This document shows, piece by piece, positions 19,342 through 47,675 of a stretch of 64,000 nt of DNA. The notes under the pieces are model-generated. The model was not told where the DNA came from and searched no databases. It worked only from the letters and a program-made list of their open reading frames with translations. The DNA comes from Bacteroidales bacterium. GTDB lineage: Bacteria; Bacteroidota; Bacteroidia; Bacteroidales; WCHB1-69. The stretch covers positions 43,531 through 107,530 of the forward strand of contig JAFXSR010000033.1 of the NCBI GenBank assembly GCA_017525505.1, in the 5' to 3' direction. A program made the translations under genes and the position numbers. Numbering within the stretch: position 1 is the first letter of the stretch; every line of letters starts with the position of its first letter.

Positions 19342-19500
19342 TTGACAGTTGAAAACTGAAAGTTAATTACTCTTCTATTAGAATCGATGAAGGAGCGAGA
19401 GCAGAGACAAAGCACCCTTTGGCTATCCTGAGCGAGGAGGAGAGGGAGACGTAGCCTCCATCGGTAGCCGAAGGGCGGGGTAGTGACGCAAACATTACGG
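19342..19500 (+). repeat. Family-A composite element, copy 1 (word leader plus about 135 bp GC-hairpin module)
   Basis: gttgacagttgaaaactgaaagttaatt is followed by ...gaaggagcgagag...gagcgaggaggag...gtagcctcc...agccgaagggcggggtagtgacgcaaa. I aligned it by eye at about 80% identity to the reverse complement of 44741-44920. Confidence 0.75.
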
Positions 19501-19571
19501 CGAAGCCGTACCTTAGAGAAGAGAATGAGATGCAATTGGCAAGTTACGCACACATAATAAAAAAACCAAAT

Positions 19572-28845: not shown

Positions 28846-28924
28846 GGTAGCGTGATGTGCATCTCCGCCTTGCGTATTTTTTGCAGAAATTTTCAGAAAT
28901 CTGTATATTTTCTGATATTTTTTG

Positions 28925-31131: not shown

Positions 31132-32298
31132 ATGAAGTTGTTGGTTGTCCTGTCCCGTTTTCCCTATCCCCTCGAAAAAGGGGACAAGTTGCGTGCGTAT
31201 CACCAGATCAGGGTGTTGTCGCGTCAGCACGACATTTATTTGTTCGCCTTGTCCGACAATGAAGTGCCGCTCGCTTCGATGGAGGCCATGAAGCCTTTCT
31301 GCCAAGAAATAAGGGTGGGGCGTTTCTGTTGGTGGACCAAGTTGACCAACAGTTTGCGGGCTTTCTTCAAGGGCTGGCCCATACAGTGCGGTTATTTTTA
31401 CAGTCGCGAGGCGAAAAAGGCTTTGCGGCAGTTTGCCGATGAGGTGAAGCCTGATATGGTTTATGCCCAGTTGGTGAGGACGGTGCCTTACGTTCAGGAG
31501 TTGGAGGGAGAGAAAACAATTGATTATCAGGATGTTTTCTCACAAGGCATGTTACGGCGCGCTCAGCGGGCCCCGTTCTGGAAGAGGCCATTCTTCAAGA
31601 TGGAGTCCCGACGCCTGCGTCGTTATGAGGCGGAGGTTTTCCCTTTGTTCCAGCACCATACCATTATCACGGAGGTGGATCGCGACCTGATGCCTGTGAA
31701 AGAAAAAGACAAGATACGCATCGTGGGCAACGGGGTTGATTTTGAGCAATACAGATATGAGGGGCAGGAGAAAAACTACGATTTGATATTCGCTGGAAAC
31801 ATGAGTTATGCACCCAATGTGGATGCAGCTGAATTTATTGTGAAACAGATACTTCCGAGATTATTGCCGCAGTTCCCGAACTTGCGTTTGGTTTTGTGTG
31901 GCACCGACCCGGCCCCGAGGGTGCGGGCCTTGCAGGGACCACATGTCACCGTCACCGGCTGGGTGGAGTCTATCGCTGAGTATTACGCCCAGTCGCGAAT
32001 TTTTTTGGCTCCGATGCGCTTGGGCACAGGTCTGCAAAACAAGCTCTTGGAGGCCATGGCCACACAGTTGCCCTGCGTTACCTCGCCCTTAGCCGGCAAA
32101 CCCCTCAAAGGCATTACCGATCAGCACGACATCTTGATTTGTGACAAGGTGGAGGAATATGTGGAGGCGATTACCCAATTACTTACGGATAATGTTTATT
32201 ATCAACAAATTTCGCAGCAAGGCTACCAGTATGTGCAACAGCGCTATTCGTGGGAGGCGGCGACGGAGCCATTGTTGCAGTTGACAATTGATAGTTGA
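31132..32298 (+). CDS. Glycosyltransferase family 4 (GT-B)
   Basis: N-terminus KLLVVLSRFPYPLEKGDKLRAYH. The C-terminal GT1/GT4 core reads IFLAPMRLGTGLQNKLLEAMA. It starts 3 nt after the kinase stop. Confidence 0.75.
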   Translation: MKLLVVLSRFPYPLEKGDKLRAYHQIRVLSRQHDIYLFALSDNEVPLASMEAMKPFCQEIRVGRFCWWTKLTNSLRAFFKGWPIQCGYFYSREAKKALRQFADEVKPDMVYAQLVRTVPYVQELEGEKTIDYQDVFSQGMLRRAQRAPFWKRPFFKMESRRLRRYEAEVFPLFQHHTIITEVDRDLMPVKEKDKIRIVGNGVDFEQYRYEGQEKNYDLIFAGNMSYAPNVDAAEFIVKQILPRLLPQFPNLRLVLCGTDPAPRVRALQGPHVTVTGWVESIAEYYAQSRIFLAPMRLGTGLQNKLLEAMATQLPCVTSPLAGKPLKGITDQHDILICDKVEEYVEAITQLLTDNVYYQQISQQGYQYVQQRYSWEAATEPLLQLTIDS

Positions 32299-32354
32299 CA
32301 GTTATTCTTTTCAGGTGAGAAGGTGAGAGGGTTTTATCCAGTTGACAGTTGACA

Positions 32355-32495
32355 ACTGTATGCAGGCCGTAGGTCTGCATGGCTTGGTAGCCCAGGGCAA
32401 CGCCCTGGGGAAATGGTGGATACGAGTGTGTGTTCGCGGCATGGGATGCGTCTGCCCTGATGATGGAACCACGCTGCCGCGAAAGGGTATCGTTA
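32355..32495 (-). repeat. Family-B GC-hairpin element, copy 3 (inverted relative to copies 1 and 2)
   Basis: tgcaggccgtaggtctgca...cccagggcaacgccctggg...ttcgcggcatggg...tgccctgatgatgg...ctgccgcgaaaggg aligns by eye to the reverse complement of 35330-35465. Confidence 0.7.
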
Positions 32496-32527
32496 CAGCC
32501 AATGAAAAATTTCATGTAGTAGCCGTG

Positions 32528-32680
32528 AGTTACACGGTTACGTGGTTACACGGTGAGAAGGTTAAGGGATTTAGAAGGTTTACAAGGTTTAGGAGGTTGA
32601 AGGAGATAAACTTCCTAAACCTCATAAACTACTAACCGTGTAACCGCGTAACCGAGTAAACTTCCAAAGTTCCCCATTGC
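32528..32680. repeat. Long imperfect hairpin built from inverted word arrays (no cargo)
   Basis: The left arm is gagttacacggttacgtggttacacggtgagaaggttaagg...aaggtttaggagg. The right arm is ttcctaaacctcataaactactaaccgtgtaaccgcgtaaccgagtaaac. The ends are complementary: cggttacgYggttacacgg and aggtttagga. Confidence 0.75.
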
Positions 32681-32747
32681 TTGTGCCCTTATAATTTGTT
32701 TTTTATAAAAAACACTTTTACATTGTTTTTGTTCTTTAAAAAAAACG

Positions 32748-32755
32748 TATCTTTG
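32748..32755 (+). promoter_or_regulatory. TAnnTTTG promoter box for xseA
   Basis: TATCTTTG lies 6 nt upstream of the ATG, so the transcript has a very short leader or is near-leaderless. Confidence 0.55.
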
Positions 32756-32760
32756 CAAGC

Positions 32761-34155
32761 ATGGAAAAACAACGAGAGACTTTCAACGACCGTCCGGTAT
32801 ATAGCTTGTCGGAACTCACTGGCAGCATCAAGGCTGTGATCAACAAGACCTATACCCGTGCTTACTATGTCAAGGCGGAGATTATACGGCTGAACAAGTA
32901 CCCCCATTCAGGGCACTGTTACCCTGAATTGGTGGAGAAAGAGGGCGACCGGATTGTGACCCAGATGCGGGCGGTCATTTGGAAAACGCAGGTGGAAGAG
33001 ATTAACGCGAAGTTCCTGAAAATCACCGGTGAACCCCTCAAAGACAACATCAGCATCCTGTGTCTGGCCACCATCGAGTTCAGTCCGCAGTATGGCTTGG
33101 CTCTTTATATCCAGGACATTGAGCCGAGCTATACCTTGGGAGAGCTGATGAGGAACAAGATGGCCGTCATCGCCCGCCTGAAGAAAGAAGGCGTTTTCGG
33201 GGCCAACAAGCGTTTGGAGCTGCCTTTGCTGCCCAAACGCATTGCGGTTATTTCGGTGGAGACCAGCAAAGGTTACAGCGATTTCATGGTGACCCTGCAA
33301 GAGAACAGCTGGAACTATTGCTTTGAGTGTGAGCTGTTTCCGTCCATCCTGCAGGGCGACAAAGCCATAACAACAATCACGGCGCAGCTGGAGGCCATCG
33401 CCAAACGGCAGAAAGATTTCGACTGTGTGGTCATCATCCGTGGCGGAGGCGGTGATGTGGGTTTGAGCTGCTACGATGACTACAGTTTGTCGCACAAAGT
33501 GGCCACTTTTCCGCTGCCAATTATCTCTGGCATAGGACACTCCACTAACGAAAGTGTCACCGACATGGTGTCGTATGCCAACAAAATCACCCCAACCGAG
33601 GTGGCCTATTTTCTGATTCAGCAGTTCCACAATTTCGCCATCCAGCTGGAAGAGGCTCAGGACAAGATCATCCGCTATGTGGAAATGCTGTTCACCCGCG
33701 AAAAATACCAGATTGAACAGATAGAGCACAATTATCTGCTGTTAGCCACCCAGTTGCTGACCAAGGAAAAACAACGGATAGCGCAAATCGAGCAGGATTA
33801 TCTCCTCACCGCCACCCGCTCGCTTACCCGCGAGAAGCATCAGATTGAGCAGCTGGAACAGCGTTGCAAGCTCAATGCCACGCATCGTCTTTCACAGGAG
33901 AAAAATGTGATGGAGAACCTCTACAAGATGATGCAACTTTCTTCAAAACAGTTGTTTGTCATCAAAAACAAGGAGTTGGAGAATTTGGAGGAGAAAATCC
34001 GTCTGCTTCATCCGCATAACGTGCTGAAGCGCGGCTATTCCATCACAAGGTTGAATGGCAAAGCCCTCACCAGGCCTGCTGATGTGAAGGAAGGAGATGT
34101 GCTGGTGACGGAGTTGAGTGAGGGAGAAGTGGTGAGTGAGGTGAGGAGATTGTAG
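32761..34155 (+). CDS. xseA: Exodeoxyribonuclease VII large subunit
   Basis: The OB-fold N-terminus reads YSLSELTGSIKAVINKTYTRAYYVKAEI and the catalytic core VIIRGGGGDVGLSCYDD. The C-terminal coiled coil has 3 tandem units of about 21 aa (REKYQIEQIEHNYLL / KEKQRIAQIEQDYLL / REKHQIEQLEQRCKL). Confidence 0.9.
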   Translation: MEKQRETFNDRPVYSLSELTGSIKAVINKTYTRAYYVKAEIIRLNKYPHSGHCYPELVEKEGDRIVTQMRAVIWKTQVEEINAKFLKITGEPLKDNISILCLATIEFSPQYGLALYIQDIEPSYTLGELMRNKMAVIARLKKEGVFGANKRLELPLLPKRIAVISVETSKGYSDFMVTLQENSWNYCFECELFPSILQGDKAITTITAQLEAIAKRQKDFDCVVIIRGGGGDVGLSCYDDYSLSHKVATFPLPIISGIGHSTNESVTDMVSYANKITPTEVAYFLIQQFHNFAIQLEEAQDKIIRYVEMLFTREKYQIEQIEHNYLLLATQLLTKEKQRIAQIEQDYLLTATRSLTREKHQIEQLEQRCKLNATHRLSQEKNVMENLYKMMQLSSKQLFVIKNKELENLEEKIRLLHPHNVLKRGYSITRLNGKALTRPADVKEGDVLVTELSEGEVVSEVRRL

Positions 34156-34268
34156 TGGCTAGTCATACCCCTATACTCCGCTATCGCTCCGTATGGAGTT
34201 ACAGAGAGGCGGCCTCTCCGAGGCCGGGGCCAAAACAGGTGTCTTGCAGTAAAGAGTGTCAGACTACC

Positions 34269-35276
34269 TTACCGGGTAATGTCTCGAAGAGACATCCTCT
34301 CTGTAACCCCACATAAGGCCGTAGGCCGCAGTGTGGGGTTCATAACCTGCAGCACCTTCTCAACGGCAATTTCCGCATGTCTCCGTTCCGCCTCAAGGGT
34401 TTGGCCACCGACGTGGGGCGTGAGGAGCACGCTGTCGTTCTCGGCCAACTCGCGCAGCACCGCGTCCCACTCTTCTTTGGAAGGAATCTGCAAACGTGAG
34501 GTCTCATATTCCAGCACATCAAAACAGGCATATATGATTTTCCCTTCTTTGATAGCGGTGAGCACATCGGCCGTATTCACCGCCCAACCCCTGGAAGTGT
34601 TGAGGAAGATGAAGGGATGTTTGATTTTCTGAATCACATCTTTATTGATAAAGTAATGGTTTTCAGGAAGGTAATTGATATGCAAAGATATCACATTGCA
34701 CTGCTCAAACAACTCTTCCAAAGTCACGGCTGTGGCATTTTCATCCTCATAATTTTGGCGATAGCGATCGTAGCACAAGACCTTGCAGCCCAAGGCTTTC
34801 AGCAGTTTGGCAAAAGCTGGACCCGTGTGTCCGTAGCCAATAATACCCACGGTATGGGAGGCCAACTCTGTGCCTTTGTTTTTCTCGCGCAACCACTGGC
34901 CCTTACGGACCTCATCATTGGCAGTAGTCACATGCCGCAAAGCGGCTAGCAGGAGGGTGAGGCACAGTTCCGCCACCGCATTGGCGTTGCCTTCGGGCGT
35001 ACTCAAACAGTGAACCCCCTTGCTTTCAGTGTACTGAGTGTCAATATTTTCCATACCAGATCCAATACGCACCACAAAACGCAAATGAGGCTTGGAATCG
35101 ATAGCAGATGCATCCACCGCAAAACGGCTTCGGATAATCAGCCCGTCGTATTCATCGGGTAATGCCACAAAGCCATCGTGGGTTAGTTCTCTATTCGTCT
35201 CGCAGTGGTAGCCGTGGGTTTCCAGTTGTTCCGCAAGGAGCGGGTGAACTCTGTCAACAATCAATATCTTATGCAT
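34269..35276 (-). CDS. D-isomer-specific 2-hydroxyacid dehydrogenase (phosphoglycerate dehydrogenase-like)
   Basis: The NAD-binding motif is VGIIGYGHTGPAFAKLLKALGCKV and the catalytic region is TPHVGGQT. The start is moved to MHKILIV because a TATTTTTG box (35292-35299, minus) overlaps the longer ORF. The last roughly 25 aa are encoded by a repeat hairpin. Confidence 0.8.
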   Translation of the reverse strand: MHKILIVDRVHPLLAEQLETHGYHCETNRELTHDGFVALPDEYDGLIIRSRFAVDASAIDSKPHLRFVVRIGSGMENIDTQYTESKGVHCLSTPEGNANAVAELCLTLLLAALRHVTTANDEVRKGQWLREKNKGTELASHTVGIIGYGHTGPAFAKLLKALGCKVLCYDRYRQNYEDENATAVTLEELFEQCNVISLHINYLPENHYFINKDVIQKIKHPFIFLNTSRGWAVNTADVLTAIKEGKIIYACFDVLEYETSRLQIPSKEEWDAVLRELAENDSVLLTPHVGGQTLEAERRHAEIAVEKVLQVMNPTLRPTALCGVTERMSLRDITR

Positions 35277-35291
35277 ACAGACTATTTTTTG

Positions 35292-35299
35292 CAAAAATA
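35292..35299 (-). promoter_or_regulatory. TAnnTTTG promoter box for the dehydrogenase gene
   Basis: The reverse complement of caaaaata is TATTTTTG, 16 nt upstream of the ATG at 35276. Confidence 0.55.
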
Positions 35300-35329
35300 C
35301 GATTTTTTTCCGTGATATGATTCTGTAAC

Positions 35330-35500
35330 CTCACGCCATCCTTTCGTGGCAGGGTAATGTCATCATCGGGGCAAACGTCACCCGTGCCGCGAGGGTGTAT
35401 ATGTGCGGTCCTGTCCCAGGGGCTTTGCCCCTGTCTGTAGTCTGGTCGGCCCTACGGGCCTTGTCTCGTCACAGTAGTACATGCGTGATGATGGACGAGT
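35330..35500 (+). repeat. Family-B GC-hairpin element, copy 1
   Basis: ctttcgtggcagg...cacccgtgccgcgagggtg...caggggctttgcccctg tctgtagtctggtc ggccctacgggcc is colinear with 37316-37480. Confidence 0.75.
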
Positions 35501-35536
35501 AACGGGAAATGATCCCATCAAAAAGTATGGGAAAAA

Positions 35537-36331
35537 TTATACCGCGACATCAGCTTTAATATGTGGGTCGGGATTGTAATTTTCCAAAGTAAAATCCTCA
35601 TACTTGAAATCAAAAATCGACTTCACCTCGGGATTGATCCGCATCGTTGGTAACGCCTTCGGGGTGCGGGTGAGCTGTAATTTCGCTTGTTCCACATGGT
35701 TGGAGTAGATGTGGGCATCACCGAAGGTATGCACAAACTCCTTGGCCTTGAGGCCGCACACTTGGGCTACCATCATCAGCAGGAGCGAGTAAGAGGCGAT
35801 GTTGAAGGGCACGCCCAGGAACACATCCGCGCTGCGCTGGTACAGCTGGCAGGAGATTTCCCCGTTGTTCACGTAAAACTGGAACAGCACATGGCAGGGT
35901 GGCAGGGCCATTTGGGGCACCTCGCCCACATTCCAGGAGCACACCATCAGCCGGCGCGAGTCGGGGTTGGTCTTGATCTGTTCGATGAGGTCCGAAATCT
36001 GGTCCACACTGCGGCCGTCGGCAGTTGCCCACGAACGCCACTGCTTGCCATAGACGGGTCCCAGGTCGCCGTTTTCGTCGGCCCACTCGTCCCAAATGGA
36101 TACTCCGTTGTCTTTCAGGTACTTGATATTGGTGTCGCCCTTCAGAAACCAGAGCAGTTCGTAGATGATGGAGCGCAGGTGCAGTTTTTTGGTGGTGAGC
36201 ACAGGGAAGCCGTCGGCCAAGTTGAAACGCATCTGGTGGCCGAAAACACTGTAGGTGCCGGTCCCGGTGCGGTCGCTCTTGAAGCTGTTTTCGTCTAAAA
36301 TCCGCTGTAAAAGGTCAAGATATTGTCGCAT
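35537..36331 (-). CDS. thyA: Thymidylate synthase
   Basis: [15 protein letters not shown]...[17 protein letters not shown]...[12 protein letters not shown]... is unmistakably ThyA. The start is moved to the canonical MRQYL. Confidence 0.95.
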
Positions 36332-36352
36332 GGTGATTGCCGTTAAAAGTTG

Positions 36353-36360
36353 CAAAGATA
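36353..36360 (-). promoter_or_regulatory. TAnnTTTG promoter box for thyA
   Basis: The reverse complement of caaagata is TATCTTTG, 22 nt upstream of the ATG at 36331. Confidence 0.6.
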
Positions 36361-36495
36361 CAATTTATTCCGATACAAAAAATCAAATTTTTGGAAAATG
36401 TTCGGGAAGAGGGAAGAAAAAAATGAAATTTTCAAAAAGTGGAAAAATTTGTAAAATTTGTTGACTTTTTTCTTGCTTTTCTCAAAATAAAAGTT

Positions 36496-36503
36496 TAATT
36501 TTG
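36496..36503 (+). promoter_or_regulatory. TAnnTTTG promoter box of the capsule (upxY) operon
   Basis: TAATTTTG is followed by a roughly 175 nt leader with several hairpins (ctttgc...gcaaag, atgggg...ccccat, cctgc...gcagg). Confidence 0.5.
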
Positions 36504-36686
36504 CCTTGCGAAAAATTTGTTTTTCCGAAAGGAGGGCGGTCACCTTTGCTTGGGTTCAGGCAAAGTCCGTATGGGGCTGAAAGAAAAGAAGTTCAACCCC
36601 CATAAATCACCTCCGGTTCCCTGCTGGTTTCCTACTGGCAGGAAAGAATGGTTTTAAATAAATTTTCGCAATAATTTATTGACAAT

Positions 36687-37211
36687 ATGACAGATGTGGG
36701 AAAGGCATGGTTTGCAATGAAAGTGTTTCAAAACAAGGTTTTTGAAATCGAAAGCTATTTGCAAGCCAAGGACACCGAGACTTATTTTCCGGTACGCTAT
36801 GAGGAGAAAACGATAGGTGGGGTGAAGAAAACGGTGCGCAAGCCGGTCATCACATCTCTGATTTTCTTCCGAACTTATTCCGAAAATCTGGCAGAAATTG
36901 AGAAGGACTTGAGTTCCAAGGTGGCCTTGTATCGCTATAGGAAATCACATCAGGTGGCTGTCATCCCCGATCGGGAGATGGATATCTTCAAGATGGTGAC
37001 CTCGGTGAGCAACAACAACTGGGATTATGTGGATGTGGCGGCCATGAGCTTCCGTCCCGAGGACCGTGTGCGGGTGATCGATGGGGAATTCAAGGGTGCC
37101 GAGGGCTATATCAAGCGCATCAAGGGCAACCGCCGACTCGTAGTTGCCATTGAGGGCGTCGTTGCCGTCGCCACTGCGTACATCCCGTCGTGCTACTTGG
37201 AGAAGTTGTGA
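36687..37211 (+). CDS. UpxY-family (NusG-like) capsule-operon transcription antiterminator
   Basis: The NGN-like N-terminus reads WFAMKVFQNKVFEIESYLQ...YFPV. The KOW motif is RVRVIDGEFKGAEGYIKRIKGNRRLVV. It is the first gene of the polysaccharide locus. Confidence 0.8.
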   Translation: MTDVGKAWFAMKVFQNKVFEIESYLQAKDTETYFPVRYEEKTIGGVKKTVRKPVITSLIFFRTYSENLAEIEKDLSSKVALYRYRKSHQVAVIPDREMDIFKMVTSVSNNNWDYVDVAAMSFRPEDRVRVIDGEFKGAEGYIKRIKGNRRLVVAIEGVVAVATAYIPSCYLEKL

Positions 37212-37315
37212 TAGGTTTGGGTTGCTCTCACCCCACACTTACGTGCGGGGTTACTGAGATATCGCCTCTTCGAGGCTCAAGCGGAACGGCTTCGCCGTAA
37301 TGTATATATCACAGT

Positions 37316-37480
37316 GTCACCCTTTCGCGGCAGGCACAATACAACATCAGGGCAAGAGTACCCCGTGCCGCGAGGATATATGTGGCATCCCGTACCAGGG
37401 GTTTCACCCCTGTCTGTAGTCTGGTTGGCCCTACGGGCCTCGACTCGCCCGGCAATGCATGTGTGCGGGAAGATAGGCAC
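37316..37480 (+). repeat. Family-B GC-hairpin element, copy 2
   Basis: cctttcgcggcagg...ccccgtgccgcgagg...caggggtttcacccctg tctgtagtctggtt ggccctacgggcc. Further hairpins sit upstream at 37215-37300 (ccccacacttacgtgcgggg, gcctcttcgaggc). Confidence 0.75.
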
Positions 37481-37550
37481 ACGGAGGCAAAAAGCTATGG
37501 CGCTGCGTGCGGTGGCCATGCCGATTGGCGAGGAGCCTGTGCGGTGGCAC

Positions 37551-37640
37551 AACAGTTGACAGTTAACAGTTGACAGTTAACAGTTGACAATTGACAGTTG
37601 ACAATTGACAGTTGAAAACTGAAAACTGAAAGTTGACAGG
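37551..37640 (+). repeat. Word array (GTTGACAG / TTAACAG / TTGAAAAC / TGAAAG)
   Basis: The sequence is gttgacagttaacagttgacagttaacagttgacaattgacagttgacaattgacagttgaaaactgaaaactgaaagttgacagg. Confidence 0.9.
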
Positions 37641-37660
37641 ATTCAAGTTTCAGGTTACAG

Positions 37661-37861
37661 TTCAAAATCCATAATCCATAATCCAAAATCTCTTCTAACC
37701 TTCTCACCCTCTCACCTTCCTAACCCTCCTCACCTTCCTAACCCTCCTCACCTTCCTAACCCTCCTCACCTTCCTCACCTTCCTAACCCTCCTAACCCTC
37801 CTAACCTTTACCCCCTCCTAACCCTCCTAACTTTAACCCCCCCCTACCCCCACCCCCTCCC
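37661..37861 (+). repeat. 201-nt G-free, C-rich word array (CCTYCTMAC units) upstream of wza
   Basis: I read it base by base and found no G between 37661 and 37861. Only one G (37862) occurs before the wza ATG. The units read ccttcctaaccctcctcac... Confidence 0.9.
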
Positions 37862-37883
37862 GAAATAAAAAAAACACCATATC

Positions 37884-38714
37884 ATGAAAAAACACCTATT
37901 CTTTATCATTGCCGCAGTGATGCTGCTGGCATCGTGCAACACCACGAAGAAGATCACTTATTTTCAGGATATCCAGAATTATACGGACACGACCAAGTCA
38001 GTGGCGCCTCCGGCTCCGGAAATCCGCTTGCGTCCTGATGACAAGATTTCAGTCATCGTCAACAGCAGAGACCCCGAGTTGACGAATATGTTCAATTTGG
38101 CCTATGTGACGCGTACATTGGGAAGTACAAGTGAAAACATTTCAACGGGAACACAGCATGGAACCTCCGGCTATGTTGTCAAAAGAGACGGTACCATCGA
38201 TTTTCCTGTATTGGGTTCGATAATAGCCGCGGGCAAAACCCGCGAAGAGCTCTCGGCTTATATCAAAAACGAGTTGATTAGCCAGGGTTTGGTCAGCGAT
38301 CCTATTGTGACGGTGGAGTTTATCAACCTGCAGTTTTCCGTAATGGGTGAGGTGAAAAAGCCAGGTTCTTACAATATTAACCGAGATTACATTACCCTTC
38401 TGGATGCTTTGTCCATGGCTGGAGATATGACCATCAGCGGTAAGCGTGAGAATGTGCTGGTATTACGCCCGGACTCTATAGGCAAGCTCACTGCTTATAC
38501 GGTGGATATGCGTTCTTTTGCCGAGGTCCAGAATTCACCGGTTTATTATATCCATCAGAACGATTACATCTATGTGGAGCCTAACAGGAAGAAAGCCAAC
38601 GAGTCAACAGTCAATGCCAACACGGTTCAGTCCGCCGCGTTCTGGATTTCCGTCGCTTCTTTCCTCGCCTCTATCGCCTCCACGATTTCCGTCATCGTGA
38701 CGAGAGCAAAATAA
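37884..38714 (+). CDS. wza: Polysaccharide export outer-membrane lipoprotein (Wza-like)
   Basis: The lipobox is LLASCNT. The Poly_export motif region reads LRPDDKISVIV...DGTIDFPVLGSI.AAGKT..EL, followed by an SLBB-like segment. Confidence 0.85.
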   Translation: MKKHLFFIIAAVMLLASCNTTKKITYFQDIQNYTDTTKSVAPPAPEIRLRPDDKISVIVNSRDPELTNMFNLAYVTRTLGSTSENISTGTQHGTSGYVVKRDGTIDFPVLGSIIAAGKTREELSAYIKNELISQGLVSDPIVTVEFINLQFSVMGEVKKPGSYNINRDYITLLDALSMAGDMTISGKRENVLVLRPDSIGKLTAYTVDMRSFAEVQNSPVYYIHQNDYIYVEPNRKKANESTVNANTVQSAAFWISVASFLASIASTISVIVTRAK

Positions 38715-38804: not shown

Positions 38805-41330
38805 ATGCAAGAAAATCAAAACGCAACAGCGAACAACATTGAACAGCAAGGAGAGCAGGCCATAGACTTGAAGGCGATATTTTACCTTTGCCTTTCCAAT
38901 TGGTACTGGTTTCTGATTTCAGTCATCTTGTGTCTGGCCATAGCCACTTTTTATCTGAAGAAAACCATCCCGGTCTATACCCGTTCAGCCAAAGTGCTGG
39001 TGAAATCCGACAACAAGGGTCACTCAGCCATGAATGTCAGCGATTTCTCGGACCTGGGGCTTTTCAGCAGTGGGGTCAGCATCAACAATGAGCTGCTCAC
39101 CATCCAATCCCTCGACAATGTGGAGGAGGTGGTGCTCCGTTTGCAATTGGATAAAAACTACACTTCCGACGGTCTGCTTCATCCTGTTTTGTTGTACGGA
39201 GAAAATTTGCCCGTCAAGGTGGAGATGCCCGGCATTGACGATCAGGCGGTTCTTTCCTTTGATATTAAACTCCAGGGAACCAAGTTCACCCTTTCCGAAT
39301 TCATGTTGGGTAAGGAAGAGAAAACGGGCTCCGTTACCGCCAAGCTGGGCGATACTGTTGCCACACCGGTGGGTGTTCTTTGTGTGGTTCCCACAGAGTT
39401 TTTCAATCCCAAAAGTCAGTACAAAACCATTCACGTACAGCGTTCCTCTATTGGAAGTACGGCACGAACCTACGTTGGCAAGCTTACGGTGGCGTTGGCG
39501 GCCAAACAGACCGATGTGATGAGCTTGACGGTGAATGACATTTCCAAACAAAGGGCCGACGATTTTATCAATATGCTCATTGCCGTGTATAATGGCAATT
39601 GGCTGAAAGACAAGAACCAGGTAATGGTGAGTACTTCCATGTTTATCAATGACCGTTTGCAGATCATTGAAAAGGAATTGGGCTCGGTGGACGATGACAT
39701 TTCCTCATACAAAAGTGCCAATCTCATGCCCGATGTGGGAGCGGTATCCAGCATCTGGTTGAATCAGAACACGGTTACGACCAACCGAATTCAGGATTTG
39801 AACAACCAGATTGCCATGACCCGCTATGTGCGCAACTATCTGATCAATATGAAGAAGAAAGACCAGCTTCTGCCGGTAAACTCGGGTATTGGCAGTGGAC
39901 AGATCGAAGGTCAGTTAGCGGAATATAACGCCATGATGCTGAAAAGAAACAACCTGGTGGCCCATAGTAGCGAGCAAAGTCCTTTGGTGCTCGAAATGGA
40001 TGACAAGCTGGCCACTATGCGCCAGGCCATCGTTGCCACACTCGACAGCCAGTTGGAAAGCCTCAACACCCTCTTGCAGAGTTTCCAAGGCACTGGACGA
40101 CAAATCAACTCCCGCCTGGCTGCCAGCCCGGGACAGGCCAAGTACTTGTTGTCGGTGGAACGTCAGCAGAAGGTGAAGGAGTCGCTGTATTTGTTCCTCT
40201 TGCAGAAACGTGAGGAAAACGAGTTGTCGCAGGCTTTTACCGCTTACAATACCCGTGTGATTGAGAAACCCAATGGCTCTCCCAATCCTACCAAGCCCAA
40301 AAAGTCTCTCATCCGTTTGGTTGCTGTCATCCTGGGTTTGGCTATTCCGGGCTTTATCCTCTTTATGATCGATTACCTGAACACCACCGTGCGTAGCCGC
40401 AAGGATTTGGAGAAACTGAGTGTGCCGCTCGTTGGCGAGATTCCGTTGGTCTATAATCCGGAGGATGCCAAGAAAAACAGAAAGAAGAAAAAAGAGATAC
40501 GGCATAATGGACAGAGCAATCCTGAGGGTTTCGCCAAGACCGTGGTGGTGAAACATGGCAGCCGTAATGTCATTAACGAGGCTTTCCGTGTGTTCCGTAC
40601 CAATCTGGAGTTCATGACCAAGAACAAGGAGAACAATGTCTTTATGTTCACCTCCTTCAATCCGGGTTCCGGTAAGTCTTTTATCGCCATCAACTCGGCC
40701 ATCAGCTTGGCCATCAAAAAGCGCAAAGTGCTGGTTATCGACGGTGACTTGCGCCATGCCTCCCTGTCCGCCTACATTTTCTCCCCAAAGAAGGGTATCG
40801 CCAATTATTTGGGTCGCCAGGAGGAGGATGTTCATAAATTGATTATCCAGAGTGATGATTATCCTTGTCTGAGCTACCTGCCCGTGGGTACCATTCCGCC
40901 TAACCCCACTGAGTTGCTAGAGGATGAGCGTTTCGGTGAGTTAATCAAAATATTGAAGCAGGAGTATGACTATGTGATGATTGACTGTCCGCCTATCGAC
41001 ATTGTGGCCGACCCGCAGATTATCAACAAGTATGTAGATCGTACCGTCTTCGTGGTGCGTGCCGGTTTGATGGAGCGCAGCCTTATTCCCGAACTGGAGA
41101 AATTATACACGCAGCACAAATATGTCAACTTGTGCATGTTGCTCAACGGCACTACCAGCTCCGATGGCCGCTATGGCTACCGTTACGGTTACCGCTATGG
41201 CTATCGTTATGGTTACCGCTATGGCTACAAGTACGGCTATGGCTATCACAATGCCTACGGCAAGCACAGCGCCTACGGTGGGTATTATCATGAGGATGAT
41301 GAGACGGAGGAGGGGGGAAGTGGAAAGTAG
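38805..41330 (+). CDS. wzc: Polysaccharide co-polymerase / tyrosine autokinase (Wzc-like)
   Basis: It has a Wzz-type N-terminal TM helix and periplasmic coiled coil. The Walker A is TSFNPGSGKSFIAINSA and the Walker B is VMIDCPP. The C-terminal Tyr cluster is GRYGYRYGYRYGYRYGYRYGYKYGYGYHNAYGKHSAYGGYY. Confidence 0.9.
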   Translation: MQENQNATANNIEQQGEQAIDLKAIFYLCLSNWYWFLISVILCLAIATFYLKKTIPVYTRSAKVLVKSDNKGHSAMNVSDFSDLGLFSSGVSINNELLTIQSLDNVEEVVLRLQLDKNYTSDGLLHPVLLYGENLPVKVEMPGIDDQAVLSFDIKLQGTKFTLSEFMLGKEEKTGSVTAKLGDTVATPVGVLCVVPTEFFNPKSQYKTIHVQRSSIGSTARTYVGKLTVALAAKQTDVMSLTVNDISKQRADDFINMLIAVYNGNWLKDKNQVMVSTSMFINDRLQIIEKELGSVDDDISSYKSANLMPDVGAVSSIWLNQNTVTTNRIQDLNNQIAMTRYVRNYLINMKKKDQLLPVNSGIGSGQIEGQLAEYNAMMLKRNNLVAHSSEQSPLVLEMDDKLATMRQAIVATLDSQLESLNTLLQSFQGTGRQINSRLAASPGQAKYLLSVERQQKVKESLYLFLLQKREENELSQAFTAYNTRVIEKPNGSPNPTKPKKSLIRLVAVILGLAIPGFILFMIDYLNTTVRSRKDLEKLSVPLVGEIPLVYNPEDAKKNRKKKKEIRHNGQSNPEGFAKTVVVKHGSRNVINEAFRVFRTNLEFMTKNKENNVFMFTSFNPGSGKSFIAINSAISLAIKKRKVLVIDGDLRHASLSAYIFSPKKGIANYLGRQEEDVHKLIIQSDDYPCLSYLPVGTIPPNPTELLEDERFGELIKILKQEYDYVMIDCPPIDIVADPQIINKYVDRTVFVVRAGLMERSLIPELEKLYTQHKYVNLCMLLNGTTSSDGRYGYRYGYRYGYRYGYRYGYKYGYGYHNAYGKHSAYGGYYHEDDETEEGGSGK

Positions 41331-41384: not shown

Positions 41385-41771
41385 TTAGGGGGTGGATAGT
41401 TGATTGTTCAATTTTTTGCGAAGGCCTGAGAGCATTTTTGCTATTTCAGTTATCTGTGGACGCAATTCGTTGAGTTGCGCTTCAGTTATGTAAGCCAGGT
41501 CCGCTGCTGTTTGTAGTTCGCTAAAGACTTCCATTAACGAGCCAAATGATATCTCAAGAAAGTGTATTTTTTCTTTGACAGATTGGCGTCCGCTTCCTTC
41601 CGCAAGATTAGCTGTAATGGAAATAGCTGCTCTACGCACCTGATTTCCAAGTCCATAACGCTCTTCAATAGGGAATATACGCTGCAAGCGATAAACATCT
41701 GCAACCAAAGATCTACATTTCTTATAAACTTCTAACCTTTCAAAAGCAAAACTTCTCATAGAATTCATCAT
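41385..41771 (-). CDS. Four-helix-bundle protein (23S rRNA intervening-sequence / Avd family)
   Basis: FERLEVYKKCRSLVADVYRL...FPIEERYGLGNQVRRAAISITANLAEGSGRQSVKEKIHFLEISFGSLMEV is the family signature. The start is moved to MMNSMRSF. It is antisense to the capsule operon. Confidence 0.85.
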   Translation of the reverse strand: MMNSMRSFAFERLEVYKKCRSLVADVYRLQRIFPIEERYGLGNQVRRAAISITANLAEGSGRQSVKEKIHFLEISFGSLMEVFSELQTAADLAYITEAQLNELRPQITEIAKMLSGLRKKLNNQLSTP

Positions 41772-41825
41772 ATACCAAAATGTAATAAACCAAACTATAA
41801 ACGAAATAAAACAAAAAAAATTATA

Positions 41826-41893
41826 AACCATAAACAAAAAAATCTATAAACCATAAACTATAAACTATATACTATATACTATATACTTTACAA
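41826..41893 (+). repeat. 7-nt word array (CCATAAA / CTATAAA / CTATATA), approximate complement of 41328-41383
   Basis: The sequence is aaccataaacaaaaaaatctataaaccataaactataaactatatactatatactatatactttacaac. Confidence 0.8.
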
Positions 41894-41894
41894 C

Positions 41895-42572
41895 ATGTTA
41901 TTCTCCAAACCAATCAACACCTACCTCAAAGGCTTCACCGACCATCACTCCCATATATTGCCCGGAGTGGATGATGGAGTGAAGAAGATGGAGGTATCCC
42001 TGCAGGTGCTGGAAAAGTACGAGCAGTTGGGTATCGCTGAGGTGTGGTGTACCCCGCATACCATGGAAGATATTCCCAATACTACGGAAGGTCTCAAAAG
42101 CCGTTTTGCGGAGCTGTGCGAGGCCTACAAGGGTCCCATCAAGCTGCATCTGGCTTCTGAATATATGATGGACGGCCTTTTCGAGGAACGTCTGGAAGAG
42201 GGTAATCTGCTGACTTTGGGCGAGGAGGGCAACCAGCTTTTGGTGGAGACCTCTTATTTCACTCCGCCCATCGATATGGACACTATCTTGCGCCGCATCC
42301 GTCAGAAGGGTTATTTCCCAGTGCTGGCTCATCCCGAGCGTTATATATACATGGATAAAGAACAGTATCATGAACTCAAGGACGAGGGTATCCGTTTTCA
42401 GCTCAACCTATCTTCCATTGCCGGTGCTTACGGTCCCGATGTCAAAGCCAAGGCCCTCTGGCTCCTCAAGAAACAATACTACGACCTTGCCGGCTCCGAT
42501 CTCCACTCGCTGAGAAACGTTTCCTTCTGGGAGGCACGAGCTCCGCGGGCCCTGAGGAAGTTTTTGGGATAG
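41895..42572 (+). CDS. PHP-family protein-tyrosine phosphatase (CpsB/YwqE-like)
   Basis: The N-terminal metal motif is DHHSHILPGVDDG, with LAHPERY later. It sits next to the Wzc-like kinase. Confidence 0.85.
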   Translation: MLFSKPINTYLKGFTDHHSHILPGVDDGVKKMEVSLQVLEKYEQLGIAEVWCTPHTMEDIPNTTEGLKSRFAELCEAYKGPIKLHLASEYMMDGLFEERLEEGNLLTLGEEGNQLLVETSYFTPPIDMDTILRRIRQKGYFPVLAHPERYIYMDKEQYHELKDEGIRFQLNLSSIAGAYGPDVKAKALWLLKKQYYDLAGSDLHSLRNVSFWEARAPRALRKFLG

Positions 42573-42632
42573 AAGGATAGAAGGTTAGAAAGGTTAGAAA
42601 GGTTAGGAGGGTTAGGAGGGTTAGGAGGGTTA
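42573..42632 (+). repeat. 8-9-nt word array GGWTAGRAR x8 (part of a 98 nt C-free tract, 42553-42650)
   Basis: The array ggatagaa ggatagaa ggttagaaa ggttagaaa ggttaggag x4 begins at the phosphatase stop. It supplies the last codons of the antisense gene. Confidence 0.9.
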
Positions 42633-43004
42633 GGAGGGTAAAGTGTTTAGCTTTTTTTTGAAAGATGCTCTTAATCCTATTAGCATTTTAGATACATATT
42701 CGAATTCAGGCTTCATTTTGTTTACATTACTGATCGAGATATAATTCAAATCAACAGCTATTAGTAATTGACAATAGCATTCCATTAAAGAACCATAAGC
42801 AATTTCTATAAAGTGGATTTTTTCTTTAACTGATGTTCTACCACTTCCTTCTGCAATATTTGATGGAACAGAAACTATTGACCTTCTGATTTGATCGCAT
42901 AACGCATACCGTTCTATAGACGGAAATTCTTTTAAGGTATCATACACTGAAACAACAAGCTTTTTGGATACTTGCCAAACTTCTAAACTTTCAAACGAGA
43001 ACAT
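42630..43004 (-). CDS. Four-helix-bundle protein (23S rRNA intervening-sequence / Avd family), second copy
   Basis: The family signature is FESLEVWQVSKKLVVSVYDTLKEFPSIERYALCDQIRRSIVSVPSNIAEGSGRTSVKEKIHFIEIAYGSLMEC. Its own TATTTTTG box is at 43040-43047 (minus). Confidence 0.85.
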   Translation of the reverse strand: MFSFESLEVWQVSKKLVVSVYDTLKEFPSIERYALCDQIRRSIVSVPSNIAEGSGRTSVKEKIHFIEIAYGSLMECYCQLLIAVDLNYISISNVNKMKPEFEYVSKMLIGLRASFKKKLNTLPS

Positions 43005-43047: not shown

Positions 43048-43065
43048 CAAAAAAATAAAAATAAC

Positions 43066-43212
43066 CCTCCTAACCCTCCTAACCTTTCTAACCTTCCTAA
43101 CCTTCCTAACCCTCCTAACCCTCCTAACCCTCCTAACCTTCCTAACCTTCCTAACCTTCCTAACCCTCCTAACCCTCCTAACCCTCCTAACCTTCCTAAC
43201 CCTCCTAACCCA
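43066..43212 (+). repeat. 9-nt word array CCTYCTAAC x about 17, inside a 204-nt G-free tract (43040-43243)
   Basis: The units read ccctcctaaccctcctaacctttctaaccttcctaacc.... It is the reverse complement of the arrays at 42573-42632, 44607-44730 and 45825-45912. There is no G until the ugd ATG. Confidence 0.9.
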
Positions 43213-43241: not shown

Positions 43242-44609
43242 ATGAAAATCTCCGTCGCAGGTACCGGCTATGTGGGTATGAGCATCGCCACTCTACTCGC
43301 TCAACATAATGAAGTAACCGCTGTGGACGTGGTTCCAGAGCGTGTTGACATGGTGAACCATAAAAAGTCTCCTATCCAGGATGACTATATTGAAGACTTT
43401 TTGGCCCACAAACCCTTGACTATCAGTGCTACCCTTGACCAGGAGGCGGGCTACCGCGAGGCCGACTTTGTGGTCATTGCGGCCCCTACCAATTACGACC
43501 CCCAGAAGAATTTCTTCGACACCTCGGCAGTAGAGGCGGTCATTGATGCCGTGCTGAAGGTGAACCCCGATGCGGTTATGGTCATCAAGAGCACCATTCC
43601 GGTGGGATATACCCGTTCGCTGTATGTCAAATATTACAGGCAAGGGGCTAAGAAATTCAACCTGTTGTTCAGCCCCGAGTTCCTGCGCGAGAGCAAGGCC
43701 CTGTACGATAACCTTTATCCCTCTCGTATCATTGTGGGTACCCCGAAAATGATGAAGGGCAAGGACTATGAGGAGGAAAACGAAGCTATCAAGGCACTCA
43801 CCGATATCGACTGGATCAGCCAGAAAGCCCATCAGTTTGCCGGTCTTCTTGTGGAAGGCGCCATCGGCCCCTCTCCAGACACCTGCTCACCCTCTAACCC
43901 TCTCACGCCCTCTCAACCCAACAAAGGCATTTCCGTCCTCTTCATGGGCATGAAGGAAGCCGAGGCGGTGAAGCTTTTCGCCAACACTTACCTGGCTCTC
44001 CGTGTAAGCTATTTTAATGAGTTAGATACCTATGCCGAGGTAAAAGGTCTTGACCCTCAGTCTATTATAGAAGGGGTTGGGCTCGATCCCCGTATTGGTT
44101 CGCATTACAACAACCCCAGTTTCGGTTATGGCGGCTACTGTTTGCCCAAGGATACCAAGCAGCTGCTGGCCAACTATGCCGATGTGCCTCAGAACATGAT
44201 GAGCGCCATCGTGGAAAGCAACAGAACCCGCAAGGACTTTATTGCCGACCAAGTGCTCAAGATGGCAGGTTATTACGCTTATAGCGAGAATAATCAATTC
44301 AAAAATCAGGGTTCAGAATTCAAAGTTCCCACCATTGGTGTCTTTAGATTGACGATGAAATCTAACAGCGACAATTTCCGTCAGTCGGCCATCCAGGGCA
44401 TCATGAAGCGCATCAAGGCCAAGGGGGCCAACGTTATCATCTACGAGCCCACTTTGGAGAACGGTACCATGTTTTTTGGCAGCCTTATTATCAACGACCT
44501 TGTCCAGTTCAAAACCCAGAGCCAGGCTATCATCGCCAACCGTTACGATGCCTGCCTGGATGATGTGAAAGAGAAGGTTTATACGAGGGATATTTTCAAA
44601 AGGGATTAG
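43242..44609 (+). CDS. ugd: UDP-glucose 6-dehydrogenase
   Basis: The Rossmann N-terminus is [21 protein letters not shown]. The catalytic Cys context is [18 protein letters not shown], with [28 protein letters not shown] nearby. Confidence 0.9.
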
Positions 44610-44730
44610 GTTAGAGAGGTTAGGAAGGTTAGGAAGGTTAGAGGGTGAGAAGGTGAGAAGGTTAGAAAGGTTAGGAAGGTTAGAAAGGTTAGGAAGGTTA
44701 GGAAGGTTAGGAAGGTTAGAAGAGATTATG
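44607..44730 (+). repeat. Word array GGTTAGRAR / GGTGAGAA (part of a 154 nt C-free tract, 44598-44751)
   Basis: ggttagagaggttaggaaggttaggaaggttagagggtgagaaggtgagaaggttagaaagg... begins at the ugd stop codon. Confidence 0.9.
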
Positions 44731-45813: not shown

Positions 45814-45955
45814 GCGGTGAGGCCTGAGGTTAGGAGGGTTAGGAGGGTTAGGAGGGTTAGGAAGGTTAGGAAGGTTAGGAAGGTTAGGAAGGTTAGGAAG
45901 GTTAGGAGGTTACACGGTTAGAAGGTTAGAAGGTGAAAGGGGTTTAGGAGGTTTA
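45814..45955 (+). repeat. Word array (GTGAGCG, GGTTAGGAR x12, GGTTAGAA, GGTTTAGGA)
   Basis: The words start inside the last rfbA codons (agtgagcggtgagcggtgagg). A C-free stretch spans 45825-45912. Confidence 0.9.
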
Positions 45956-45990
45956 GATGGCAAGTGCTTCCTCAAGGATGTGAATGCTAC
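45956..45990 (+). pseudogene. Orphan 35-bp fragment of a nucleotide-sugar dehydrogenase gene (DGKCFLKDVNA)
   Basis: gatggcaagtgcttcctcaaggatgtgaatgct matches ggtggcaaatgcttccctaaggatgtgaacgct at 47846-47878 at 28 of 33 positions. The differences are mostly at third codon positions. Confidence 0.6.
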
Positions 45991-46007
45991 TAATATATAA
46001 TATTAGA

Positions 46008-47675
46008 ATGAAAGGTATACAAAATACTATTACAGGAAATTTTAGCTCAATTATCAGCAATAGCCGGCGTTTTGTTGTCCCGAAATTCCAAAGAGACTAT
46101 TCGTGGAGTAGTGAGCAGTGGGATGATCTGTGGCAAGATATTGAGACGATGATAGAGGAGCATGATGAACATTACATGGGTTATCTTGTTCTTCAGACTC
46201 AAGACGATAAGCTTTTTTACATAATAGATGGACAGCAGCGCTTTACTACGGTATTGATTCTTATTTATGCTGCAATAAAGTGCGTGCAGAGACAGATTGC
46301 CCAGGGTGTGGATGTTGAGGACAATAGGCGTCGATGCGAATCTTTGAAGAATTTGTACATAGGGAAAGAGGATCCTGTAACATTAGACTATGACAACCTC
46401 TTAACTTTGAACAGGAATAATAACGCTTATTTCTGTGACTATATCTTGAAATTGGGTGATTTGAAGGCACGAAATCTTACAGCAACAGAAAAACTGATGC
46501 GTAGCTGCTTTGAGTATTATGAGCAAAGGCTTATTGGCAAGTTCAATAGTGGAAAAGAGTATGCTTCTTTCATCCAGACAGTTGCAGATGGTTTGCATTT
46601 TACGCAAATCGTGGTCAATGATGAGATGAATGCATTCCGTGTATTTGAGACTCTGAATGCACGTGGCGTTCAATTGTCATCTGCAGACTTGTTAAAGAAT
46701 TATTTGTTCTCTAAAGTTGATAGCGAAACCACTCATAGTAGCCGTATAGATACGTTAGAGCGCAAATGGAGCAAGCTCACCGATAATATTAAGGCCGAGA
46801 AGCTTCCAGAGTTTCTTCGCTATTATTGGAATATGCAGCACAAAACAATTCGTGCCAATGCCGTATATAAAACTATTCGTCAGGAGATTAAGGAAGATAA
46901 GCAAGTGTTCCTTTTGTTGGATGACCTCATCTCTTATAGTGATATTTATATGGCATTGACTGATGAGAATGATGAAATGTGGACAGATTCGGAGGTTAAG
47001 GATAATGTGGCTCTGCTTAATCTTTTCCGCCTGAAACAGCCTTTCTCATTGCTTATGGCTGCCAAGAAGAGTTTGACGGACAATGAGTTCAAACGGGTGC
47101 TGAAGACTGTTATCATGGTGTGTTTTCGCTATAATGTAATCTGCGATAGAAATCCCAATGACCAAGAAACTCCATTTAATGCGCTTGCTCAATCTATAAG
47201 CCATAATAATCTTGTTGATTTGAAGGAGCTTTCATCGATCATGGTGGATGATGCTGAGTTCAAGAGTGCATTTAAAGAAAAGACTTTCCCTTATAACTCG
47301 CGTAATGCCAAAGTTATGAGGTACATATTGGGAAAGATAGAGCATTTCAAAGGCTCTGCCCAGGCAGTTCGTTTTGATGATGAGAACGCATCTATAGAAC
47401 ATGTTTATCCCCAGAATCCTTCTGAAGAGTGGGATTTGGACGAATCTAAGATGCAACGTTTTGTTTTTCGACTTGGAAACATCTGCCTTTTGGAAAAAGG
47501 ATTGAATAGGGATTTGCAAAATGCAAGTTTCGCAGAAAAGGTTTCAGTTTATAAAAAGTCATCATTTTATTATGCTCAAAAAATATCATCAGAATATAAT
47601 GAATGGAATGATAGCGCTATAATAAAGCTTCAGACCGAGATGGCAAACGCTGCTGTATCTATTTGGCGAGTATAA
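46008..47675 (+). CDS. DUF262 + DUF1524 protein (GmrSD-like type IV restriction / nucleotide-targeting defence enzyme)
   Basis: The N-terminal DUF262 motifs are FVVPKFQRDYSWSSEQWDDLWQDI and IIDGQQRFTT. The C-terminal His-Me/DUF1524-like motifs are IEHVYPQNP...GNICLLEKGLNRDLQNASFAEK. The start is moved to MKGIQNT. Confidence 0.8.
   Translation: MKGIQNTITGNFSSIISNSRRFVVPKFQRDYSWSSEQWDDLWQDIETMIEEHDEHYMGYLVLQTQDDKLFYIIDGQQRFTTVLILIYAAIKCVQRQIAQGVDVEDNRRRCESLKNLYIGKEDPVTLDYDNLLTLNRNNNAYFCDYILKLGDLKARNLTATEKLMRSCFEYYEQRLIGKFNSGKEYASFIQTVADGLHFTQIVVNDEMNAFRVFETLNARGVQLSSADLLKNYLFSKVDSETTHSSRIDTLERKWSKLTDNIKAEKLPEFLRYYWNMQHKTIRANAVYKTIRQEIKEDKQVFLLLDDLISYSDIYMALTDENDEMWTDSEVKDNVALLNLFRLKQPFSLLMAAKKSLTDNEFKRVLKTVIMVCFRYNVICDRNPNDQETPFNALAQSISHNNLVDLKELSSIMVDDAEFKSAFKEKTFPYNSRNAKVMRYILGKIEHFKGSAQAVRFDDENASIEHVYPQNPSEEWDLDESKMQRFVFRLGNICLLEKGLNRDLQNASFAEKVSVYKKSSFYYAQKISSEYNEWNDSAIIKLQTEMANAAVSIWRV

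Follow-up and report, generated by a model that had tools for sequence, protein, structure and literature searches.

What is conserved in the three diverged, hairpin-rich copies of one element that lie in a 64,000-nucleotide stretch of Bacteroidales DNA (the whole stretch that was analysed, in the following the window)? A preliminary description placed these copies at 35330-35500 (+), 37316-37480 (+) and 32355-32495 (inverted), where all three are indeed present, and ascribed them to selection on structure, either in a REP/BIME-like DNA element or in a structured RNA motif. According to the analysis presented here, the locus probably harbors a composite repeat of the BOX/BIME/BrickBuilt kind, which is restricted to a lineage, was spread by recombination and contains constrained hairpins or protein-binding boxes.

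The three copies are located inside 5 kb of the 64 kb window, each in the gap that separates the end of a gene from the promoter of the following one. An nhmmer search with a 5'-module profile detected them in the window at E = 1e-15 to 7e-17, and beyond them no match better than E = 2. Two motifs, CCTTTCGYGGCAG and CCCRTGCCGCGA, occur exactly three times each at a constant distance of 28 nt. A MAFFT alignment of the copies spans ~130 nt, and copies 1 and 2 share 75% identity over 67 nt and 85% over 71 nt. The GC content of the element is 59-62% compared to 46.5% for the window. The following features were assigned:

35341-35460, plus strand: copy 1, whole element, found by motif search and nhmmer
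35341-35392, plus strand: P1 module of copy 1, boxes 1-3 with V1 and V2 between them
35341-35352, plus strand: box 1 of copy 1, CTTTCGTGGCAG
35353-35360, plus strand: V1 of copy 1 (variable)
35361-35372, plus strand: box 2 of copy 1, CATCATCGGGGC
35373-35381, plus strand: V2 of copy 1 (variable)
35382-35392, plus strand: box 3 of copy 1, CCGTGCCGCGA
35344-35351 paired with 35385-35392, plus strand: P1 stem of copy 1, with one U.G pair
35393-35460, plus strand: 3' half of copy 1, consisting of linker GGGTGTATATGTGCGGTCCTGTC, P2 module CCAGGGGCTTTGCCCCTGTCTGT (35416-35438) and P3 GGCCCTACGGGCC (35448-35460)
37228-37320, plus strand: extra 5' modules M6-M8 of copy 2, starting 17 nt past the stop codon of the UpxY-like gene
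Plus strand: M6 hairpin of copy 2, CCCCACAC-TTAC-GTGCGGGG
37262-37277, plus strand: M7 hairpin of copy 2, GCCTC-TTC-GAGGC
37286-37314, plus strand: M8 of copy 2, ACGGCTTCGCCGTAATGTATATATCACAG
37322-37439, plus strand: core of copy 2, with box 1 (37322-37333), box 3 (37363-37373), linker, P2 CCAGGGGTTTCACCCCTGTCTGT (37395-37417) and P3 (37427-37439)
37440-37550, plus strand: tail modules of copy 2, two G-rich modules of M5 type (CGCCCGGCAATGCATGTGTGCGGG; ATGGCGCTGCGTGCGG at 37497-37512) and an M9-like end
32358-32486, minus strand: copy 3 (type B), with P1 from box 1 (32485-32474) to box 3 (32444-32434)
32410-32386, minus strand: P2B hairpin of copy 3, CCCAGGGC-GTT-GCCCTGGG
32382-32358, minus strand: P3B hairpin of copy 3, ATGCAGACC-TAC-GGCCTGCAT, with an A.C mismatch on the minus strand that is a G.T pair on the plus strand

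The most conserved part of the element is P1, an 8-bp stem (UCGYGGCA / UGCCGCGA; arms CTTTCGCGGCA / TGCCGCGAGG) that closes a 33-nt loop. The first two motifs of the preliminary description, ctttcgYggcag and ccRtgccgcga, are complementary to each other and form this stem, which was overlooked there. P1 is composed of box 1 (CTTTCGCGGCAG), V1, box 2 (CATCATCAGGGC), V2 and box 3 (CCCGTGCCGCGA), and boxes 1 and 3 are inverted repeats of one another. The spacers V1 and V2 are hypervariable in sequence and fixed in length at 8 and 9 nt, respectively, so that the box centers are ~20 and 20.5 nt apart, approximately two helical turns, in a strictly fixed spacing. P1 is followed by a linker with the core TATATGTG, by one to three tandem copies of the P2 hairpin (CCAGGGGYTTYRCCCCTGTCTGT) with a period of 24 nt, and by the P3 hairpin (GGCCC-TAC-GGGCC). 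The G-rich M5, M5b, M9 and M10 are optional, as are M6 (CCCCAGAC-TCAC-GTCTGGGG across copies), M7 (GCCTC-TTC-GAGGC) and M8 on the 5' side. In most copies, GTAG follows the last P2 stem at a distance of 3 nt on its 3' side; others have GTGATC, GTCC or GTAC, while CGTC is present in some box 2 variants only. A lone M8 hairpin (ACGGC-TTC-GCCGT, with AATGT) and no P1 was observed in a GC-rich intergenic stretch at 19492-19509 (-).

In copy 3 and in the related contig L003, P2 and P3 are replaced by a type-B 3' half, CCCAGGGC-GWT-GCCCTGGG followed by ATGCAGACC-TAC-GGCCTGCAT. The colinear set of motifs described for all three copies therefore applies to copies 1 and 2, whereas copy 3 has only P1 in common with them and lacks tctgtagtctggt, which had been listed as a shared motif. 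The letters given for hairpin 1 (P2) are correct, namely caggggC-ttt-Gcccctg in copy 1, caggggT-ttc-Acccctg in copy 2 and cagggc-gtt-gccctg in copy 3, but the stem of copy 3 is actually longer and comprises 8 bp (cccagggc/gccctggg). Hairpin 2 (P3) likewise reads ggccc-tac-gggcc in copies 1 and 2 and tgcaggcc-gta-ggtctgca on the window plus strand in copy 3. The G.T pair pointed out for copy 3 does exist on the plus strand, but this strand is opposite to the element's own sense, in contrast to the U.G pair in P1 of copy 1, which is on the sense strand.

Copy 2 is part of a longer mosaic (~37228-37550), the tail of which abuts a TTGACAG 7-mer array at 37552-37615. Tandem arrays of the element with a period of 137-143 nt occur in the related contigs L016, L027 and L029. 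Contig L010 contains 1.1 units, where a second, shortened box 1 after the unit gives rise to a 16-nt direct repeat, ACTTTCGCGGCAGTCA. The most divergent P1 copies (L025 1664-2251 and L005 3134-3523) have other 3' modules and a terminal GCTGYGTGCGKGGG. They are located just downstream of a truncated RhuM-like gene and an antirepressor-like C-terminal fragment, a hint that remnants of mobile elements carry P1 at their edges, too.

In total, 26 P1 copies were found in at least five related lineages of uncultured rumen Bacteroidales; the dehydrogenase genes of the element-bearing lineages are 85-96% identical. A pattern scan of 185,579 species genomes, which required boxes 1 and 3 (P2 and P3 were in no search pattern), identified the element in no genomes other than three Bacteroidales MAGs of yak and cattle rumen origin (RGIG9334, RGIG10078 and RUG14804), the remaining matches being chance hits in unrelated high-GC genomes. 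Four further contigs came from a loop-anchored scan of JGI metagenomes. The copy number is three per 64 kb in the window and at most ~8 strict pattern matches per related MAG, and the majority of copies are found in the same 10-kb neighborhood. In the window, the neighboring genes are mutS, a PMT_2 glycosyltransferase gene, an Omp85-like, a histidine-kinase-like and a GT4 glycosyltransferase gene, xseA, a D-2-hydroxyacid dehydrogenase gene, thyA, and the genes for a NusG-like UpxY, Wza, Wzc and further capsule functions. No transposase or recombinase is found among the annotated neighbor genes of the window copies. A cis element specific for UpxY is ruled out by the copies at dxr, folD, xseA, thyA and glycosyltransferase boundaries. 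A coding element is ruled out, since a search of 5.8 billion proteins gave no homologue for the ORFs that run through it and the reading frame is disrupted by module indels; a phage, plasmid or virus origin is ruled out by the lack of any match to the element in the viral, phage and plasmid collections searched.

Several other observations concern the same neighborhood. Arrays of 7-mers (ACAGTTG / TTGACAG type) and of 9-mers (TAACCCTCC / AGGTTAGGA type, containing TTAGGG) fill intergenic regions, especially in the capsule locus (37552-37615, 37695-37831, 42572-42639, 43062-43211, 44608-44721, 45827-45934 and others). These arrays, found on both strands, make up long inverted repeats and directly adjoin the mosaic elements at their ends. 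A cyanobacterial origin, to which the heptamer repeats had first pointed, was rejected, since the neighboring genes and the related loci are those of Bacteroidales. Two 23S_rRNA_IVP genes (bAvd-like four-helix bundle) at 41385-41831 (-) and 42630-43004 (-) are located among the capsule genes and are flanked by 9-mer arrays. The Wzc-like protein has a tyrosine-rich C-terminal tail, RYGYRYGYRYGYRYGYKYGYGY, which originates from 12-nt tandem repeats at 41168-41246. A GmrSD restriction endonuclease gene is found at 45984-47675, and a single ORF of ~3500 codons with internal repeats at 1744-12246 (+). Downstream of xseA, relatives carry a second hairpin repeat, GGGGAGTCTCGCAC-TTC-GTGCTCGAGGGG (L004 4402-4430, L013 1692-1720, L016 1376-1404 and L005 1120-1148), of which blastn-short found no occurrence in the window.

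Lineages with 85-91% identity differ in gene order exactly where the copies are located. Inverted copies, whose 5' ends point inward, lie on both sides of the dehydrogenase gene, and in L003, L004 and L016 this gene is flipped relative to xseA compared to L013. Since the V-region haplotypes stay with the outer flanks, the breakpoint of this inversion is at box 1. The thyA-UpxY segment, which lies between direct copies, is present in some lineages and absent in others; in L004 and L027, copies of the copy 1 and copy 2 type are adjacent with no such segment between them. One site is empty in the window and filled in relatives:

28846-28881, no strand: empty site, ~27 unrelated bases in the window, 1.1 units in L010 and a complex array in L012

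A comparison of the filled sites in L010 and L012 with this empty site revealed neither a target-site duplication nor terminal inverted repeats. With interchangeable modules of varying number, tandem arrays and copies at synteny breakpoints, the interpretation as a REP/BIME-like DNA element is supported.

All three copies are unchanged in eight same-species contigs from other samples (99.5-100% identity). Consequently, there is no sign of present-day mobility, and mobility at the strain level was rejected. Both orientations of the dehydrogenase gene occur in MAG RGIG10078. The respective contigs are only 91% identical and thus belong to different lineages, which excludes an inversion within a population. 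Compared to the window, the same-species contig L033 differs by a single gap, by which the UpxY-Wza interval is 36 nt shorter (637 vs 673 nt). Contig L036 (1-910) encodes an identical UpxY-like protein and diverges upstream of window position 36084 (inside thyA), where it has other genes; this contig represents either a rearranged strain or a chimeric assembly. Window positions 34206-34339, comprising the last ~29 dehydrogenase codons and an adjacent hairpin (cggcctc-tcc-gaggccg), show no homology to the orthologue in L013 and match an intergenic segment of L010 (5141-5272) with 84% identity. The segment is another shuffled module that replaced the 3' end of the dehydrogenase gene.

At four-fold degenerate sites of thyA, xseA and the UpxY-like gene, the window and L013 are 64-73% identical. 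The P2 stems, the P3 stems and the three P1 boxes, in contrast, are identical in all of the at least five lineages, and the view that the copies are not simply decaying junk is therefore supported. The invariance of boxes 1 and 3 is partly due to ascertainment, because the genome scan required them; six copies found by nhmmer alone have both boxes intact, too. Decayed solo or truncated boxes also exist, such as a 3' remnant in L012 (CCCTTCCGCGCAGGCAGG) and positions 2745-2780 of L004. These data support a constraint on the sequence itself, beyond mere pairing. The fixed spacing of invariant boxes is the pattern that would be expected for recognition by a protein. The spacers behave differently: V1 is identical at only 2 of 8 positions at orthologous sites, which is below the neutral expectation, and the same V1 allele, GCACAATA, is found at different sites in different lineages. 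Variants of V1, V2, linker and tail occur in many combinations among the copies. This reassortment indicates that copies exchange segments, with crossovers in the invariant boxes.

Presumably, the element spread and was reshuffled locally by recombination between its invariant boxes, for which unequal crossing-over, gene conversion and template switching at hairpins are conceivable routes, and a cut-and-paste transposase would not take part. As a by-product, the repeats may supply homology for inversions and deletions between neighboring genes. Purifying selection holds the boxes and stems, most likely because the hairpins, or a protein that binds the boxes, have a function at gene boundaries. 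Like REP/BIME and BOX, they may terminate or insulate transcription, or shield the 3' ends of transcripts from upstream. Some observations do not fit a composite repeat so well. The copy number is far below that of classic REP or BOX families, no mobilizing enzyme or mechanism is demonstrated, and the constancy of the copies among same-species contigs gives no evidence of ongoing activity. Moreover, a specific protein or RNA function could account equally well for the strict sequence conservation of both stem arms at fixed spacing.

Whether an RNA structure is selected was addressed with RNAalifold on 19 distinct type-A copies. Of 23 predicted pairs, 19 never vary and one is changed on both sides, with a covariation term of -0.22 kcal/mol. 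This pair closes the P2 loop and is U-A in 12 copies, C-G in 5 and a broken C.A in 2. The 26 P2 modules comprise two main alleles, T-TTC-A (n = 12) and C-TTT-G (n = 9), and five intermediates. The compensatory change from C-G to T-A, given among the paired changes in the preliminary description, is hence real, but it represents a single event propagated by copying. An alignment of 21 P1 copies contains no compensatory pairs. An inner helix between V1 and V2 is ruled out, because their variants assort independently and RNAalifold leaves both unpaired. Folding z-scores favor neither strand (sense -1.2, -0.5 and -2.8; antisense -3.1, -1.8 and -1.4). In Rfam 15, a search of the whole window at the gathering threshold yielded only tRNA-Cys, and in the region 31500-38500 no match with E up to 10 overlaps any copy. 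Copies 1 and 3 have the same orientation relative to local transcription, as stated in the preliminary description, both being antisense to the flanking genes. At intergenic sites between tandem genes, four copies are sense and two to three antisense, so that no orientation bias is apparent; the others lie between convergent genes or adjoin a divergent promoter. The Bacteroidetes -7 motif TAnnTTTG is found upstream of xseA, the dehydrogenase gene, thyA and the Omp85-like gene, and is absent upstream of copies 1 and 3 in their own orientation. Upstream of copy 2, TAGGTTTG at 37212-37219, directly past the UpxY-like stop codon and ~10 nt before the long form of this copy, fits the -7 motif. If it were a real promoter, the copy 2 mosaic would be the 5' leader of a Wza/Wzc transcript. 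With one of 23 pairs changed on both sides, no orientation bias, no Rfam match and no conserved promoter, the reading as a structured RNA receives almost no support from the larger alignment.

A more specific form of this reading is a paralogous family of small RNAs, or a processed tandem array of them, with P2 and P3 as stabilizing or terminator hairpins. Its seed would be the P1 loop CAUCAUCAGGGC, pairing for example to UGAUGAUG around start codons. Such a family would account for box 2 being conserved in the loop amid variable flanks and for stems conserved above neutral expectation. It would also explain that the only three changes in the P1 stem, all one-sided, are C-to-U and keep U.G pairs on the sense strand. 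At 9 of 11 sites a co-directional gene is situated on the 5' side of the element, and sense read-through is therefore possible. We nevertheless consider small RNAs unlikely, given the covariation in a single pair, the lack of strand preference in folding, the mixed orientation and the absence of an Rfam match. The type-B P3 and M6 of the window contain A.C mismatches on the sense strand, which are G.U pairs on the opposite strand. Copies 1 and 3 lack TAnnTTTG upstream, and from site to site the copies have unrelated 5' flanks; with ~20 nt between units, the arrays offer no space for a promoter. Finally, no hairpin with a U-tract was found at the ends of the element, and without U-tracts the hairpins are not canonical intrinsic terminators.

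The remaining explanations assume that a protein acts on the DNA. A sequence-specific DNA protein (for instance a recombinase, a nucleoid-associated protein or gyrase) might use P1 for binding or crossover, and the repeats would then serve programmed shuffling by the capsule locus. Invariant boxes separated by spacers of fixed length and variable sequence, the mutual inverted repeat of boxes 1 and 3, and the clustering of copies beside the UpxY/Wza/Wzc capsule locus agree with this idea, as do the dehydrogenase inversion breakpoints, which fall between the 5' flank and V1, i.e. within or at box 1. Still, it seems quite improbable: there is no recombinase gene near the copies in the window, both orientations are seen only between lineages that are 91% identical and never in one strain, and the geometry is unlike attC or the core sites known for tyrosine and serine recombinases. 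The copies could also represent a non-autonomous transposable element (a MITE, an IS200/IS605-type PATE, or a REPIN mobilized in trans), which would be intergenic, hairpin-rich and interspersed, with presence varying between lineages, as is the case here. The P1 arms (CCTTT..GCA / TGC..AGG) weakly resemble the IS5-type terminal inverted repeats of BrickBuilt, and the distant copies in L005 and L025 adjoin genes typical of mobile elements, a RhuM-like gene being truncated by one of them. We give this origin very little credence, because the whole element is not surrounded by terminal inverted repeats or a target-site duplication, GTAG is unconserved and on the wrong side of the stem, copies are very few and locally clustered, no viral, phage or plasmid match was found, and no polymorphism exists at the strain level. 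Extremely unlikely, in our estimation, is P1 as a programmable recognition module, in the form of RNA or a folded DNA strand, for a recombinase or nuclease encoded in trans, again as a shuffling system by the capsule locus. The invariant 8-bp stem and the loop box CATCATCAGGGC would then provide the scaffold, and V1 and V2 would specify the partners. Unless the hypervariable P1 segments of fixed length prove functional, the element does not represent a new class of system.

A composite repeat thus remains our preferred interpretation. Good descriptions of composite hairpin repeats exist for Firmicutes and Proteobacteria and, within Bacteroidales, for Porphyromonas gingivalis. To our knowledge, they are essentially undescribed in uncultured rumen Bacteroidales, which are dominant in ruminant guts. 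Since the present family marks gene-order breakpoints by a capsule locus and its boxes are conserved far above neutral expectation, it is a useful marker, which in rumen MAGs could serve for the detection of assembly errors, strain typing and the analysis of rearrangements. In addition, the repeat may mark boundaries between genes, in the role of terminator, insulator or protein-binding site.

Among known systems, REP sequences carry GTAG or CGTC at the 5' foot of a palindrome of 20-40 nt, are present in hundreds of copies and are accompanied by a cognate RAYT; termination, mRNA stabilization and protein binding have been proposed as roles of REP/BIME. The element shares with REP/BIME of Enterobacteria and REPIN of Pseudomonas the extragenic, GC-rich palindromes arranged in mosaics and conserved above neutral expectation, the location at gene 3' ends and between convergent genes, and the property of being a substrate for rearrangements. 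It differs in its low copy number, does not follow the GTAG/CGTC tag rule and has no sequence similarity to REP; no RAYT is among the annotated genes of the window. Integron attC sites have the R''/R' consensus RYYYAAC ... GTTRRRY and are found in the same orientation at the 3' ends of cassettes. The P1 arms are off this consensus and the copies occur in both orientations between housekeeping genes (xseA, thyA), so that attC was rejected. The bridge RNA of IS110 and the seekRNA of IS1111 lie at the end of an element that carries a DEDD recombinase gene, and their guide loops match target and donor. They were likewise rejected, as no such gene adjoins any copy; V1 and V2 have no excess of matches to the flanking DNA. 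Retrons and type III antitoxin repeats were dismissed for lack of fitting anatomy and of a partner gene.

The BOX element of S. pneumoniae and S. suis has the structure boxA-boxB(n)-boxC, with terminal inverted repeats, target-site duplications and more than 100 copies, and in S. suis several module types are combined in permutations (PMC3049150). In contrast to BOX, the present element is without terminal inverted repeats and target-site duplication, does not exceed ~10 locally clustered copies per genome, is GC-rich, belongs to another phylum and has no sequence similarity. The likeness is in the plan: a 5' module, a variable number of tandem internal hairpins and a 3' module. In both, the internal module folds independently, so that its number can vary, and both are intergenic, form predicted stem-loops and are apparently dormant within species.

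BrickBuilt (and MITE464/PgRS) from Porphyromonas gingivalis is a MITE with IS5-type terminal inverted repeats (GAGACCTTTGCA / TGCAAAGGTCTC), in which a leader and a tail enclose spacerless tandem units of 23 nt, up to 22 in number (PMC4596501). The element of the window has one to three units instead, each a perfect GC hairpin, and no sequence similarity to BrickBuilt. It lacks IS5-type ends; only CCTTT..GCA in the P1 arms resembles them, and the GAG prefix is unconserved. The correspondence nevertheless extends from the host order, Bacteroidales, to the plan of leader, tandem units and tail, with the 24-nt period of P2 next to the 23-nt units of BrickBuilt. Both are low-copy (~10-20 per genome), always intergenic, restricted to their hosts and often partial or mosaic.
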